From Promethearchaeota archaeon (GTDB taxonomy: Archaea > Asgardarchaeota > Lokiarchaeia > Sigyniarchaeales > SOKP01): a DNA stretch of 64,000 nucleotides. The notes beneath the pieces were generated by a model. That model did no database searches. It was not told the DNA's origin and saw only the letters and a program-made list of their open reading frames with translations. This document shows, piece by piece, positions 7,582 through 13,864 of this stretch (its first letter is position 1; each line of letters begins with the position of its first letter). The DNA is taken from contig JBHLNZ010000003.1 of the NCBI GenBank assembly GCA_048941015.1, positions 60,797 through 124,796 on the forward strand. The letters are read 5' to 3'. The translations under genes and the position numbers were made by a program.

Positions 7582-10500
7582 TTGACACACATAAAGAAAA
7601 TTTCTATGACGGGATTTAAATCATTTGGAGATCGGACAGTTACAATTAGACTTTCAAGCGGATTTACTTGTATTGTAGGACCAAATGGAGCTGGAAAGTC
7701 TAACATCATTGATGCCTTAACTTTTGCTTTAGGAAGATTAAGTAAAAAAACCATGCGAGCGAAATCATTAGAGGATCTTATTTTTGCAGGATCAAGAGGA
7801 AAGAATCCTTCCAATAGAGCTACTGTAACCTTGTATTTCGATAATTCTGATAAAGAATTTCCAGGGGATTCTGACACTTTTGAAATATCACGAACAATTA
7901 AAAGAGGGGGAGGCGGAGGATATAAAATGAACGGGGAAAAAACAACTAGACAGCAAATTCTAAATGCTTTGGCTGCAGCAAATATAGATCCTGATGGTAG
8001 TAATCAATTTGTACTTCAAGGAAAAATAGTTGAATTAACCCACATGAATCAAGAAGAAAGAAGAACTTTTATTGAGGATCTTATCGGGTTACAGAAGTAT
8101 GATGAAATGAAGGATGCAACAATGAAAGAATTAGAAAAAGCAGAACGCGATTTGGGACAGTTTGAAGCGATTTTCAAGGAGGTCTCATCACAATTGAAAA
8201 AAGTTGAAAAAGAGAAAAATGATGCTATTGCTTGGAAAGAACTTGATGAAAAAATTAAACATTATAACGCCCAATTAATCGCACTAAAAATATCTAAATT
8301 AAGAAACGAAGAACAAGAAATAGAGGTTAAGATAGAAGAGTCAAATAAAGTAATCGAAGAATTAGAAGAAAGAATAACAAGACAAGAAGACGTATTAAAA
8401 CAAGAATCACTTATCATGGAAAATATTCAAAAGACTATTACGGAAAAGGAAAAAGAGAGAGAAATCATAAATGAAAATATAACGCAATATAAAACTCAAC
8501 TCTCTTCAAACCAGACAACCTTAAAATTAGCTCAAAAATCAATTGACAAATTAAGTCTAGAAATTAAGAACTTAGAAACTATGCTAATGGAGCTTGAGGA
8601 CGGTCAGACATTTGAATTATTAATCGATGAAAAAAAAAGTGAAATCTCAAAGACCGAAAGTCTTATAGAAGATTCTAAAAAGGAAATAGAATTAAGACAA
8701 CAAAATCAATCTGAACTCGATCTTAAAATTAAAAATAATGAGGATATGAAATCCTCTCATAAGGCAGAAATTTCGAATATTAAACAAAATATCTCTTCAA
8801 ATAAAGCCCAAATAAAATTACTAAGGGATTCAATAAAGAAAAATGAAGAAAAAAGGAAAAAGTTAGAAATAGATTTAAATAAATTAAAGGGTGAAGCAGA
8901 AAGCATTGATGACGCAATTGTCAATACGAAGAAGGAAGAGAACGAAGCTAGAAGTAAAATTGACGATTTAAAATCTAAAATTTCCGAAGAGAACAAGAAA
9001 CAAAAGGATTTAGAAAATAAAATTAAAGATTTTCAAGATCAAAAATATCAATTGAATACCAAACTTGTTGATTTACAATCTTCTTTATCTTCCTTAAATA
9101 CTGAAATTAAAATGAATAGGGATAGAATTGATAAGCTAAATTCTAAGAAAGGATTAATAGAAAATAAAATTAAAGAATTGAGTAAAGGAAAAGATACTGA
9201 AGAAGTCATTAAAGACCTATTGAAAGAGAAAGACAAGATAATTAAAGATCTGAATGAGTTAAAGAAAGAATCCAAAGAAGAAGATTCAAAATACAGGCAA
9301 AATGAACAAAATTTAGATCTATTAATCATGAAACAAGATTCTATTCAATCAGAAATAATTGACAATAAATCTAAAATTGAAAATATAAAGACTAAATTAA
9401 AATTATCTAAAAGAGAACTAACAAACTTAGAAAGAGAAAAACGAGATTTGGAATTAAAAGTTAATACTTTAAAATCTAATATTAAGAAAGATGAAAATGA
9501 AATCCAGAATTTAGATAGTAAAAAAGATAATATTTTAAGACGTTTAGATGATCTCTCTTCAGAAAAAGATAATTTAATATCGAAGATTGAAAATACTGAG
9601 AAGGAATATGAAAGGAATACTGAAGATGTTACTGGAATCCTCCAAATTTTAAACATGCTAACTCAAAATATTAATATCTCTGTTGAATCGATTAAAAGTA
9701 ATATTCAGCAATCAAATGCAGAAGCAATTGAAACTTCTGCTGAAGATTTTAGAAAATTTGTGTTAGATATAGTAGATATAATGAAATCTGTAGAAGATGT
9801 AAGTGAAGAAGGAGAAAAATCATCAGAAATGTCCGAAATGCTAAATTCAATATTACAAACATTAAAACTTTTTACCGAAAATGTTGATTCAACAATCGGT
9901 CAACTAATAGGTAAGGTAAAAGAATCTGCTGATGTTGAGATACAACAATCAACCGCAACTTTTGATAGTTTTGTTCAAGATTTAATGGAAATACTGGAAA
10001 ATGTATATCTTTCTCTAAGAAAGTTAACCATGTCTAAAAGTCAAGAATTATATCAACAATTAGAAGAAATTTCGGATAATATTGGTTCTCAAACAAATGA
10101 TTTAAATAATCTTGAGAAAAGTCTTACGAAACTGGACACTGAAAAAAAGCATAACACCGAAAGTCTTAATTTAAATTCAAAAAGGCTTGAAATAGTTAAT
10201 ACAAGAGTTATTGAATTAAAAAATAATATTGAAAAATTTGATAAAGAAATCGATCAAAGAAATAAAATTATTGATGAAAAGCTAAAACAAAATTTTGAGA
10301 AGGAGATTCTAGACTTAAAAAGGAATAAAGAGCTATATTGGGAAAATGTATCTAAAATCCAAGAAGAGATAGATCTTAAACAAAAGAATCTCGATGAATT
10401 ACAAGAAAAACATCAAGAATTAAGAGGTATTCAAAATTTATTTGAAAATGTATTAGAGATTGAAAATAATATCCAAGATTTAAATAGCTCGATAGAAGAG

Positions 10501-12030
10501 AAGAAAAATTCAATATTATCTGCAGAAGAAATTATAAAAAATCATCATATAGAGCAAAATGCATTAGATTCTAAAATTGAAAAGTTAATATCTGAAAAGG
10601 ATAATTTCTGGGAAAGTACCGAAAAAATTCAAGCTGAAATTGATGACTACAATAAAAATTTAGAAGAGATTATGGATCGAATGAGAGCACTTGAAAATAT
10701 TATGATGATTATTAATTCTATTGAAGATTTAGTCAAAGAAAATGAGGATGCCAATAATAATATTGATTTATGTGACAAAAATATACAAACTTACAACTCC
10801 CAAGTAGAAGAAATCCAAAAGAAAGTTGATGAAGTTCAACAAATCATTGATGCACTAAGAGAAGAAAAAAATAATGAAATTGAAGAACAAAAGAAATCAC
10901 AAAAAGATTTAAATAAATTAAACAAAGACTTACAAAAGATTCAAGGAAAATTAAATGAACTTAACCAAAATAAAGAAAGGCAACAAAAGATTCTTTCATT
11001 AAATGAAGATATTAAAGATACAGAAAAACAAATTGAATCGATTTTAGCAGATATAGAAAAAATAGAAAAAGCATTATCTACGGAAAACGATAAGAAACAA
11101 CTAAAACAAGATGAAATAGATAAGTTTATCCAAGAAAAAGATGAATCATGGAAAAAACAGAAAACTTATCAAAAACAACTAAACGATTTAAAATCTGATC
11201 TCTCTATGGAAAATTCAAAATTGAATAATTATGAGTCTAAAAAAATTATTACTACAGACCAGATTGAAACCTTATATCAAAGATCAAAAGATTATGGGGC
11301 TTTACCCCCTGTTACAGATGAATTATCTGAATCAGGATTACAATCTGATATCAATGAAGCTTCTAAAAAGAAAGTTGCTCTTGAACCCGTAAACCTAAAA
11401 GCAATAGAACAATATGACAATGTTAAAGAAAGATTCGATGAAATAGATATGAGAAGACAGACAATTCAGAGAGAAAGGAAGTCTATATTGGATGCTATTG
11501 ATAAAATTGAGTTAGAAAAAACTAGAACTTTTATGAAAGCGTATCATGAAATAAACAGAGAATTTAGCAGAATCTTCCAAAAATTAAGTCCTGGAGGATC
11601 AGCAAAAATGATTCTTGACAGACCAGACAAACCATTTGAGGGGGGTGTTAGTATTGAAGCAAGACCGAGAGGAAAGAAGATTTCAAGTTTAGAGATTTTA
11701 AGTGGTGGAGAAAAAACATTAGTAGCGTTATCTTTTATTTTTGCAGTTCAAGAGTTTTATCCTGCACCTTTTTATATTATGGATGAAATAGATGCAGCCC
11801 TTGACGGTCCAAATGTTCATCGAACATCAATGGTTATAAAAGAATTCGCAGAACAGGCTCAATTCTTAGTTATTAGTCATCGAGAGGAGAATATTGTTAA
11901 TGCCGATCGTATATATGGGGTTTCAATGCAACAAAGCGGTATTACTGATATATTTAGTGTAGATTTAGAAGAAGAGGCTAAGAGACTTCTTGAACTGCCA
12001 GATGTACCAACAAATATAGAAGAAAGCTAA
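7582..12030 (+). CDS. smc: Chromosome segregation ATPase SMC, long and without canonical hinge
   Basis: GFKSF, GPNGAGKSN, Q-loop VLQG, PVNLKAI, LSGGEK, MDEIDAALD, ISH; long coiled coils. Confidence 0.95.
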   Translation: MTHIKKISMTGFKSFGDRTVTIRLSSGFTCIVGPNGAGKSNIIDALTFALGRLSKKTMRAKSLEDLIFAGSRGKNPSNRATVTLYFDNSDKEFPGDSDTFEISRTIKRGGGGGYKMNGEKTTRQQILNALAAANIDPDGSNQFVLQGKIVELTHMNQEERRTFIEDLIGLQKYDEMKDATMKELEKAERDLGQFEAIFKEVSSQLKKVEKEKNDAIAWKELDEKIKHYNAQLIALKISKLRNEEQEIEVKIEESNKVIEELEERITRQEDVLKQESLIMENIQKTITEKEKEREIINENITQYKTQLSSNQTTLKLAQKSIDKLSLEIKNLETMLMELEDGQTFELLIDEKKSEISKTESLIEDSKKEIELRQQNQSELDLKIKNNEDMKSSHKAEISNIKQNISSNKAQIKLLRDSIKKNEEKRKKLEIDLNKLKGEAESIDDAIVNTKKEENEARSKIDDLKSKISEENKKQKDLENKIKDFQDQKYQLNTKLVDLQSSLSSLNTEIKMNRDRIDKLNSKKGLIENKIKELSKGKDTEEVIKDLLKEKDKIIKDLNELKKESKEEDSKYRQNEQNLDLLIMKQDSIQSEIIDNKSKIENIKTKLKLSKRELTNLEREKRDLELKVNTLKSNIKKDENEIQNLDSKKDNILRRLDDLSSEKDNLISKIENTEKEYERNTEDVTGILQILNMLTQNINISVESIKSNIQQSNAEAIETSAEDFRKFVLDIVDIMKSVEDVSEEGEKSSEMSEMLNSILQTLKLFTENVDSTIGQLIGKVKESADVEIQQSTATFDSFVQDLMEILENVYLSLRKLTMSKSQELYQQLEEISDNIGSQTNDLNNLEKSLTKLDTEKKHNTESLNLNSKRLEIVNTRVIELKNNIEKFDKEIDQRNKIIDEKLKQNFEKEILDLKRNKELYWENVSKIQEEIDLKQKNLDELQEKHQELRGIQNLFENVLEIENNIQDLNSSIEEKKNSILSAEEIIKNHHIEQNALDSKIEKLISEKDNFWESTEKIQAEIDDYNKNLEEIMDRMRALENIMMIINSIEDLVKENEDANNNIDLCDKNIQTYNSQVEEIQKKVDEVQQIIDALREEKNNEIEEQKKSQKDLNKLNKDLQKIQGKLNELNQNKERQQKILSLNEDIKDTEKQIESILADIEKIEKALSTENDKKQLKQDEIDKFIQEKDESWKKQKTYQKQLNDLKSDLSMENSKLNNYESKKIITTDQIETLYQRSKDYGALPPVTDELSESGLQSDINEASKKKVALEPVNLKAIEQYDNVKERFDEIDMRRQTIQRERKSILDAIDKIELEKTRTFMKAYHEINREFSRIFQKLSPGGSAKMILDRPDKPFEGGVSIEARPRGKKISSLEILSGGEKTLVALSFIFAVQEFYPAPFYIMDEIDAALDGPNVHRTSMVIKEFAEQAQFLVISHREENIVNADRIYGVSMQQSGITDIFSVDLEEEAKRLLELPDVPTNIEES

Positions 12031-12057
12031 ATTATTAGTAAGAGAAGGTGTTTAATA

Positions 12058-13068
12058 ATCCCTGAAAATGAAGAAAATAAAATAAAGTATAATTTTAAAG
12101 AGTGGACTGTTAAACAATTAAGAGAGTTTGCTGGAAAGAATAATATAACTATCCCCTCTAAATCTAAAAAAGTAGAAATAATAAAATTATTAAAGGAAAT
12201 AACTTCTCACCCCGAATTTGTTGATAGAACTAAATCTGAAGATAAAGAAGATGAACAGGAAGAAGAACTTGAAATTGAACTGATTGCTGGAGAAGAAGAA
12301 CCAGAGCTTATCAAAAGAGAAAAAATAGAATTAAAGTTTTGGCAAAAACCACCTTATTCTAGTTTATTAGATTCTGAATTAGCCAAACAATCAAATGTCG
12401 CATTTTATGATTTAGCTTCATTAGTTGATAAATTTTTTGATAATATGCTTCATGAAGATATCATTAATTACAAAATTTCTGGTATTGCGCTTAAAACTTC
12501 GGCATCATTACACCATTATAAAATCTCAAGTATTATTAAAGAAGAAGAAGAAATACAAAAAAAACAAGAACTTGAGGAATTTAGAAGAAAACATGGCCGT
12601 ACAATTCCAAAAACTTTACCTCAACCAATTTCTCCTAAAATGATGATATCTACAAAAGAAGAATTATTTGAAGCAATGAGATCAGCAATAATCGAAACAA
12701 TGCAACAAAAAGAAAAATTAAGAAGGCGACGTTTACGTAGAGAGCAATTAAAGCAAGAAAGAATTCAAATGCAGTCAAAAGCACAATTACCTAAAGAACT
12801 TTTAAAACATATTAGTGGAAAAGAACAAACGATTGAAGAATTGCTTGAATCATGGTATAATCGCATCAAAGCAAGTATTAACCTTGATAATGAAGATACT
12901 AGCCTTTTTAGTATGGTCAATGTCATAAAAACCGAAGAAGAAAGCGATATTGGCAGAAAATTTGCGTTTGTAAGATTGTTTTTAGCATTAATGTTTTTGT
13001 CAACGGGGAATAAATTAGTCTTATCTCAAGATGAGGATTTCAAAGATTTAATGATTAGTGTAAAATAA
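12058..13068 (+). CDS. scpA: Kleisin ScpA with N-terminal SAP/HeH-like module; non-canonical start inferred
   Basis: Frame open from 12031 to 13068. Kleisin N-domain (YDLASLVDKFF..M....INYKISG.AL..SA.L...K) begins upstream of ATG 12445. C-terminal FLALMFL.....L.L.Q.E.F. Lies between smc and scpB. Confidence 0.85.
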   Translation: MPENEENKIKYNFKEWTVKQLREFAGKNNITIPSKSKKVEIIKLLKEITSHPEFVDRTKSEDKEDEQEEELEIELIAGEEEPELIKREKIELKFWQKPPYSSLLDSELAKQSNVAFYDLASLVDKFFDNMLHEDIINYKISGIALKTSASLHHYKISSIIKEEEEIQKKQELEEFRRKHGRTIPKTLPQPISPKMMISTKEELFEAMRSAIIETMQQKEKLRRRRLRREQLKQERIQMQSKAQLPKELLKHISGKEQTIEELLESWYNRIKASINLDNEDTSLFSMVNVIKTEEESDIGRKFAFVRLFLALMFLSTGNKLVLSQDEDFKDLMISVK

Positions 13069-13099: not shown

Positions 13100-13864
13100 A
13101 TGAGTGAAGAGCATGAAAGTTTGAACGAAAATGAAAATTCAAATTCTGAGGGAGATTCGAATGAGAAACTTGAAATAATATCTAAAGAGAAATTGAATAT
13201 AAACAACCAATCTCATGATAACCTTCAAATCGACAATGAACAACAAGTTGATGAAACAATACGAGAACAGGAGAATATTTCTTTAGATGAAATTATAAAA
13301 GAAGGTGAAATTTCTCAAAAGGATGATGAAGAAGCTGTAGATGTACAATTAAAAGATTTACAAAAAAATTTAATAGAAGGAGCTCTTTATGCTGCTGGTA
13401 GACCTTTAGATATTGAAGAGTTATCAATAAAATTAGAGATTTCTAAAAAAATAGTAGAAGAGTTAGTCATGGAAGTAGCTTATGATTATTTGGAACGATC
13501 TAGTGCTTTAATTATAGCACAAATCGGAGATAAGTTCCAAATGCAAATTAGACCGGAATATACTGAAAAAGTATCAAAATTTGCAAAAGGAGGTGCGATT
13601 GCAGAACGATATTTACGAACTTTAACAATAATCGCTTTAAAGCAACCTATATTAAAATCTACTGTAATTAAATTAAGAGGAACCGGTGCTTATGAACATA
13701 TTAAATATTTATTAGATAATGATCTAATCTCTGCAGTAAAAAAAGGTAGGACTCATGAATTATCAACAACAGATAAATATGCAGAGATGTTTGGATTGCC
13801 AAAAAATAAGGAAGAATTACGAAAGGCAATGATACTACAGCTAGGATTAGAAAGTCAAGAATAA
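13100..13864 (+). CDS. scpB: SMC-Scp complex subunit ScpB
   Basis: IEGALYAAG.PL, LRTL.IIA.KQP....IKLRG..AYEHIK.L, TT.K.AE.FGL; acidic N-terminal extension. Confidence 0.92.
   Translation: MSEEHESLNENENSNSEGDSNEKLEIISKEKLNINNQSHDNLQIDNEQQVDETIREQENISLDEIIKEGEISQKDDEEAVDVQLKDLQKNLIEGALYAAGRPLDIEELSIKLEISKKIVEELVMEVAYDYLERSSALIIAQIGDKFQMQIRPEYTEKVSKFAKGGAIAERYLRTLTIIALKQPILKSTVIKLRGTGAYEHIKYLLDNDLISAVKKGRTHELSTTDKYAEMFGLPKNKEELRKAMILQLGLESQE

Follow-up and report, generated by a model that had tools for sequence, protein, structure and literature searches.

A long Lokiarchaeal Smc with a conserved helical repeat in place of the hinge

Introduction

The hinge is regarded as a universal and defining part of SMC proteins, and roles in dimerisation, in binding and admitting DNA and in the bypass of obstacles have been ascribed to it. 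A 64,000-nucleotide stretch of the genome of a Promethearchaeota archaeon (Lokiarchaeia, Sigyniarchaeales; assembly GCA_048941015.1, contig JBHLNZ010000003.1, positions 60,797 to 124,796 of the forward strand; hereafter the window) raises the question of whether an Smc can do without a hinge and, if so, what stands at the far end of its arms. The initial annotation of the window described an Smc with neither a hinge nor a Rad50-type zinc hook at positions 9620-10070, which encode residues 680-830, the middle of a 1482-residue protein (smc, 7582..12030, with a TTG start and a TAA stop, on the + strand like every feature of the window given below). We find that this midpoint is occupied by a strongly conserved, acidic and hydrophobic-rich direct repeat of 53 residues (residues 685-808), predicted to form the tip of the coiled coil.

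Results

Canonical heads, and neither hinge nor hook

The ATPase head of the protein is that of a canonical SMC, as first proposed. Its translation shows the Walker A motif GPNGAGKS in the N-terminal half-head (approximately residues 1-170; 7582..8091), which matches SMC_N and AAA_23, and the signature LSGGEK, the Walker B motif MDEIDAALD and an H-loop in the C-terminal half-head (11452..12030, including the stop codon). The bipartite ABC head that characterises SMC proteins proper is thus present. Column identity across 107 full-length homologues is 0.74-0.97 in the first half-head and 0.86-0.98 in the second. The Pfam family SMC_N (PF02463) scores 141 bits, spanning residues 3-1455, and Pyrococcus Smc head structures are the matches in the PDB (E 1.6e-119 to 3.5e-96; best 5xei), with 5xei and 1xew aligning to residues 2-250. 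Among NCBIfam models, TIGR02168 scores 593 bits against a cut-off of 567 and the archaeal-type equivalog TIGR02169 602 bits against 729, each in an alignment broken into 5 stretches; hinge-type Asgard Smc proteins match TIGR02169 in a single stretch at 832-905 bits. The scores for Rad50 (105, cut-off 1000), ASRP (137, cut-off 300) and RecN (26, cut-off 408) are far under their thresholds.

No glycine-rich alpha/beta hinge was detected between the two half-heads. The Pfam hinge family PF06470 gave no match in the protein at E<=1, and a sequence search of PDB chains with residues 601-900 returned only chance-level chemoreceptor and EibD matches (E about 1-4). A profile of the apex, compared by hhalign with a profile of 18 hinge-bearing Asgard SMCs, gave a probability of 0.1% (E 0.59); as a positive control, the SMC5/6-like hinge of the same genome, entered as a single sequence, was recognised at 95% (E 2.5e-8). 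The predicted structure of the apex, described below, is all-helical and lacks the central alpha/beta hinge of SMC proteins proper. One protein search returned 171 homologue matches of 1464-1497 residues, and precomputed Pfam annotation records a hinge in none of the 120 homologues listed. The zinc hook of Rad50, SbcC and ASRP is also missing: C30 and C1064 are the only cysteines of the protein, so there can be no CxxC hook at the apex. On both points the initial annotation has held up, with neither a hinge HMM match nor a predicted hinge fold in residues 680-830.

A conserved repeat at the midpoint

The apex comprises four segments. An ascending tip strand, repeat 1 (residues 685-737; 9634..9792), is 21% charged and 45% hydrophobic, with column identity reaching 0.96 within residues 691-720. 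An acidic and variable loop follows (residues 738-755; 9793..9846), in which aspartate and glutamate make up 39% of residues and homologues carry insertions and deletions. The descending tip strand, repeat 2 (residues 756-808; 9847..10005), is defined by repeat statistics, composition and conservation, and leads into a conserved post-repeat segment (residues 809-840; 10006..10101) with the motif LRKLTMSKSQELY, invariant columns and an identity of 0.82-0.88.

The internal repeat noted initially proved to be real and longer than first described. Residues 685-737 and 756-808 align by BLASTP of the two halves with 28% identity over 58 residues (E 1e-7), and their sub-alignments by hhalign with a probability of 94.6% (E 6.5e-8). 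When repeat 1 was compared with 30 control windows, the 28 that did not overlap repeat 2 all gave E values of at least 0.07. BLASTP of the whole protein against itself finds no repeats at E<=1e-3; the duplication is detectable only by direct comparison of the halves or of their profiles.

Conservation and composition both set the apex apart from the arms. Residues 661-720 and 781-840 are conserved to a degree otherwise seen in the heads (up to 0.96), with a variable stretch in between, and the arms are variable (0.4-0.7). The charged fraction of the repeats, 0.21-0.23, is about half that of the arms (0.39-0.44), and their hydrophobic content, 0.42-0.45, about 1.5 times as high (arms, 0.29-0.31); basic residues are scarce (6-8%). 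Hydrophobic residues keep a spacing of 3-4 throughout the tip, and conserved hydrophobic doublets exceed the a/d pattern, which implies more buried surface than a two-helix coil requires.

The arms themselves are long. The N-terminal strand (residues 171-684; 8092..9633) is 44% charged and free of proline, and the C-terminal strand (residues 841-1290; 10102..11451) is delimited by conservation, structure prediction and composition. Without the tip the two strands measure approximately 514 and 482 residues, as against approximately 330-340 in the 1195-residue hinge-type Smc of a relative, a lengthening of approximately 1.5-fold, or 1.65-fold with the tip, and the arm, tip included, would be about 80 nm long. 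According to Burmann et al. (PMC5344682), Smc arms, whether natural or engineered, are tolerated at lengths that differ by increments of about 91-99 residues; the approximately 150-185 residues by which each strand is longer here would correspond to about two of these.

The apex is predicted to be the tip of a helical hairpin

To describe the apex structurally we turned to an AlphaFold2 (AF2) model of residues 600-900, built on an alignment of 38 sequences (mean per-residue confidence, pLDDT, 87). The region is predicted to form a single antiparallel helical hairpin with no separate globular domain: two unbroken helices (fragment residues 2-142 and 148-300) are joined by a turn at residues 742-747, within the acidic loop. 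The confidence is about 95 in the arm parts and drops to 73-82 in the tip and to 57 at the turn itself; residues 601-742 form one continuous helix, modelled at 90-95. With the turn placed there, each copy of the repeat becomes one strand of the tip. The distances from the turn to the two head halves are similar (572 and 543 residues), which puts it close to the midpoint between them, and the long intramolecular antiparallel coiled coil of SMC proteins proper is predicted over the modelled residues.

The top structural match of the model, both by Foldseek and by a search independent of it, is the Thermotoga maritima chemoreceptor 2ch7 (Foldseek E 1e-4, TM-score 0.46-0.49; VIA-align Z 14.7 over 298 residues). 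Coiled coils of cohesin, MukB, Rad50 and Smc follow, together with dynein stalks, and the Smc arm fragments 5xg2 and 5nnv also match the hairpin. No hinge chain is prominent; the one hinge-containing entry, 4rsi (a Smc2-Smc4 hinge with extended coiled coils), ranks 20th in the Foldseek-independent search, among the coiled-coil matches. As scores of this size are typical of any long helical hairpin, they speak to shape only. A search of the ESM Atlas with residues 660-850 returned unnamed fragments only. The apex had been described as a novel all-helical duplicated domain: it is conserved, duplicated and predicted all-helical, but the model shows the tip of a hairpin and not a globular fold.

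The tip-type Smc is a paralogue conserved across one order

We surveyed the tip in a phylum sample of 201 genomes, with the same result from single-sequence and profile queries. It occurs in 38 of the 40 genomes of the window's family, in all three of the sister family and in one other genome. Across the order, 131 of 154 genomes have the tip and 22 of 24 genera are represented; among the high-quality genomes, 35 of 39 carry it. A single-protein query of a species-level genome collection gave 101 loci, nearly all titled Promethearchaeota or Promethearchaeia, and tip homologues (E<1e-10) form 24 clusters when grouped at 50% identity, the most diverged of them 22-43% identical, with one labelled Sigynarchaeota. 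The architecture is restricted to one order and is not shared by Asgard SMCs at large; most other families of the phylum carry an Smc of 1190-1220 residues with a strong hinge (E about 1e-33) and an SMC5/6-like protein of 1120-1170 residues with a weak one. Two SMC complexes are known in archaea (PMC8665677; bioRxiv 10.1101/2024.01.07.573240), and the strong- and weak-hinge pair of Asgard genomes fits that picture.

Three cases stand apart. One genome of a distant family (G193, family f22, L033) carries a tip-type Smc that sits beside that of G165 in the head tree on a very short branch, and a contig titled 'Candidatus Nanopelagicaceae bacterium' (DATKTW010000114.1, L079) encodes an 81%-identical tip; both look like mis-binned or mislabelled Lokiarchaeal DNA. 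The closed 3.3-Mb genome G242, of the same family, has its tip at C1:2199384-2199911 in an open frame of only 879 residues, perhaps because of a frameshift or because this copy is broken.

Within the window's family, genera g1, g2, g3, g5 and g7 have only a weak-hinge SMC besides the tip-type protein, and genera g4, g6 and g8 an additional strong-hinge Smc of 1196-1203 residues. The sister family likewise has a strong-hinge Smc, in the sampled genome G089 and in three closed genomes (4.4, 6.0 and 4.3 Mb). The tip-type protein is therefore a paralogue and not simply the Smc of the lineage. Where both types were traced to their neighbours (G147 and G089), the long Smc has a long ScpB (about 118 bits) encoded after it, and the hinge-type Smc a short ScpB of its own (63-76 bits). 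The order is smc-scpA-scpB in G147; in G089 an open reading frame (ORF) without a ScpA match lies between smc and scpB. One genome with two Smc proteins has a second ScpA-like gene at a separate locus. Since each type adjoins its own ScpB, the two belong to separate complexes, which bears out the idea of a distinct class of Smc-ScpAB complex.

The genome of the window, a metagenome-assembled genome (MAG) of 95% completeness, shows neither a hinge-type Smc nor a second ScpB. One ScpB, one ScpA and an SMC5/6-like hinge were detected, leaving the hinge-less complex as the only condensin-type complex found there. The SMC5/6-like protein, on contig C32 (L010:5453-10132), has 1168 residues, a weak hinge and divergent heads. 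Two small ORFs of 216 and 169 residues with no Pfam matches follow its gene, and are candidates for the Nse4-like kleisin and the Nse1/3-like kite of an SMC5/6-related complex.

In a tree of head domains, 13 tip-type proteins split from 18 hinge-type SMCs (SH-aLRT 92), and the C32 protein is a distant outgroup (branch 6.7), placing the long Smc outside the SMC5/6-related clade. A clade uniting the tip-type proteins with the order's own hinge-type SMCs is not rejected by the approximately unbiased test (p 0.6), and the tree, built from Asgard SMCs only, cannot by itself date the duplication. Given the distribution, the simplest reading, though not a proven one, is that the gene duplicated at the base of the order and that several genera later lost the hinge-type copy.

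The neighbouring scpA and scpB genes

The genes of the kleisin and the kite follow smc, as the initial annotation had stated, and the remaining neighbours are housekeeping genes. The product of scpB (13100..13864), of 254 residues with an acidic N-terminal extension, matches PF04079 at 110 bits (7.7e-32) and TIGR00281 at 94 bits, over the cut-off. The product of scpA, which lies in between (12055..13068; probably 337 residues), is divergent. It has only weak Pfam matches (HeH, Rho_N and the ScpA C-terminus), the ScpA match at E 0.027, and is identified through its relatives: from residue 102 of the open frame it is 56% identical to the ScpA of G147. The relatives' proteins themselves reach PF02616 at E 0.0018, which is under the cut-off. 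The adjacent kleisin and kite expected of an SMC protein proper are thus present, and the best explanation of the long gene is that it encodes a condensin-type Smc paralogue whose working partners are still ScpA and ScpB.

The start of scpA is unusual. Its frame contains no ATG, GTG or TTG before 12445 (12031-12445, the first approximately 130 codons), and homology to the relatives' ScpA begins at codon 102. A Shine-Dalgarno-like AGAAGGTG lies 4 nt upstream of an ATA codon at 12055, and two relatives (G065 and G177) carry ATA AT[CT] at the position of the scpA start; three others use GTG. Judged by these signals, translation probably begins at ATA 12055. In the window, smc and scpA share one frame with a single TAA between them. 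We considered read-through of this stop and rejected it, because the relation between the two frames is 0, 1 or 2 among relatives. Near its N-terminus (approximately 12097-12204), ScpA has a weak HeH/LEM, Rho_N or SAP-like motif (E 7e-4 to 1e-3, under cut-offs). This SAP/HeH motif is the 'shared module' of the initial annotation, and is separate from the apex.

Discussion

What could stand in for the hinge? We consider the tip to be a Smc-Smc dimerisation junction, in which two hairpins associate as a four-helix bundle, and put the probability of this reading a little above even, at about 0.55. In the mechanism we propose, the tip of the coiled coil itself would replace the globular hinge. Arm strands of about 540-570 residues each would ascend to the turn at residues 742-747, which is flanked on either side by one copy of the 53-residue direct repeat, a sequence with few charged and many hydrophobic residues and a net acidic character. 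Two such tips could then pack laterally into a four-helix bundle, in the manner of chemoreceptor hairpins, and this bundle would act as the constitutive Smc-Smc junction that the hinge otherwise provides. The resulting Smc2-ScpA-ScpB2 complex would be a ring or a rod, its arms about 80 nm long; having no basic surface of the hinge type, it would handle DNA by means of its heads, its arms and ScpAB.

Several observations lead us to this reading. The tip is as conserved as the heads, its composition and hydrophobic pattern imply additional buried surface, no other dimerisation domain was found, and its shape resembles that of chemoreceptor hairpins. Furthermore, a Rad50 zinc hook supports Smc function in Bacillus subtilis (PMC5344682; PMC6969161), which is a further reason for assigning a junction to the tip. 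We also count in its favour the position of the turn near the midpoint of the protein, and the fact that neither a hinge-type Smc nor a second ScpB was found in the genome. Weighing against it, the apex-to-apex contact is inferred, the model is less confident in the tip (73-82) and at the turn (57) than in the arms (approximately 95), its alignment is shallow and made of close relatives, and structural matches as good as these would be obtained with any long helical hairpin. The tip is acidic and so cannot stand in for the DNA-binding role ascribed to hinges, and a hinge-type Smc could lie in a gap of the 95%-complete MAG. A complex prediction with two copies of residues 641-870 scored 0.00 and gave no verdict, being uninformative either way.

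Of the alternatives, the one that survives best, though we consider it unlikely, is that the tip is a docking surface and not a Smc-Smc junction, the Smc being held by its heads, arms and kleisin. With a bend at an elbow, the tip might reach back to the heads or ScpAB, or it might enter a mixed helical bundle with another protein. The hinges of cohesin, condensin and MukBEF fold back at an elbow, and arms of about 80 nm leave room for one; an acidic surface could also contact basic partners. The main support comes from an unrelated family of sister-family proteins, 925-1290 residues long, that carry the 176-residue tip module near the N-terminus, mostly as two tandem copies (L015:7178-10255 on the - strand in G089; P0140, P0145, P0146 and P0148). 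Its presence there indicates that the module can function outside an SMC protein. Two of them, the L015 protein and P0148, end in a lysine-rich tail of the HC2/H1-like kind, and P0140, P0145 and P0146 have no Pfam match at all. These proteins occur in 9 of 14 sister-family genomes; however, none was found in the window's genome and only marginal matches in its family, where the tip is equally conserved. Moreover, we know of no working precedent for a kleisin-bound SMC without a junction at the far end of its arms.

A second alternative, which we regard as improbable, is that residues 680-840 form a compact globular helical domain, such as a four-helix bundle within one chain in which each repeat is a helix-turn-helix. 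The composition of the repeats is like that of globular domains, the confidence of the model falls across the tip, and glycines at 685, 744, 773 and 777 are possible helix breakers. Yet the modelled helices run unbroken through both repeats, the hydrophobic spacing of 3-4 persists all along them, and proline is absent from residues 170-1241. The related module points the same way: the tandem-module region of a non-SMC protein, modelled by AF2 from 7 sequences, is also predicted to be all-helical with a single central turn (pLDDT 76). Foldseek with that model returned only low-TM helical matches, which do not reveal how the two modules pack. Lastly, a hinge diverged past recognition, or an assembly artefact or pseudogene, has the midpoint position as its one supporting point and is already contradicted by the negative profile comparison alongside a working control, by an all-helical prediction where hinges are alpha/beta, by intact length and architecture in more than 100 genomes, closed ones included, and by strong purifying selection on the tip.

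A junction formed by the tip would set this complex beside, and apart from, several known systems. It resembles the canonical Smc-ScpAB of Pyrococcus and B. subtilis in its heads (5xei, 1.6e-119), antiparallel coiled coil, smc-scpA-scpB order and strong ScpB. The canonical complex differs in having a hinge and shorter arms, the Lokiarchaeal strands being approximately 1.5 times as long (approximately 1.65 times with the tip), and in lacking the divergence and N-terminal HeH/SAP-like motif of the Lokiarchaeal ScpA. Chemoreceptor (MCP) signalling domains such as 2ch7 are likewise long helical hairpins and dimerise as four-helix bundles. With an identity of 7-11%, no MCP match at Pfam E<=1 and phmmer matches to MCP chains in the PDB at E 3.8-4.3, the likeness is an analogy of shape and not of family. 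Rad50/SbcC and the archaeal ASRP proteins (ClsN, Sph) have zinc hooks, and RecN a helical coiled-coil dimer interface. All are SMC-superfamily ATPases with a coiled-coil far tip and no hinge; unlike the Lokiarchaeal Smc, which has no CxxC, they are not known to be bound by a kleisin or kite.

The closest engineered parallel is Smc(Zh) of B. subtilis, in which the hinge was swapped for an unrelated Rad50 zinc hook and growth was still supported (PMC5344682; also PMC6969161). In both proteins a structurally unrelated coiled-coil tip would take the place of the hinge; Smc(Zh) is engineered and uses a zinc hook, whereas the Lokiarchaeal Smc is natural, has no CxxC or metal site, and would be joined by helices alone. 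In the literature searched there is no description of this archaeal protein, and what comes closest is a clade of SMC proteins without a hinge in marine Actinobacteria, for which only sequences and structure predictions are available (PMC12153180). This clade shares SMC-like heads and a coiled coil with neither hinge nor zinc hook; it is bacterial, with no partner genes or conserved tip module reported, and we compare it by its published description only.

A whole Asgard order thus has a conserved Smc-ScpAB without a hinge, with arms longer by approximately two superhelical periods of the coiled coil, and in most genera of the window's family the tip-type complex is the sole condensin-type complex found. 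We speculate further, at rather long odds, that this is a natural hinge-free, kleisin-bound SMC motor whose acidic helical tip is a new kind of SMC junction, maybe a reversible one, and that the tip, through the copies of its module on separate proteins with histone-H1-like tails, could also recruit other chromatin proteins or be capped by them. If this were true, the functions credited to the hinge, such as DNA binding, gating and obstacle bypass, would be dispensable or performed otherwise in the archaeal lineage closest to eukaryotes. The protein is a natural counterpart of the hinge swaps engineered in B. subtilis, and lets the purpose of the hinge be examined in a system that nature has provided. 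Because the sister family keeps both complexes, each with its own ScpB, the two can be compared within one cell, a direct route to asking which functions of the hinge are needed for loop extrusion and chromosome segregation.

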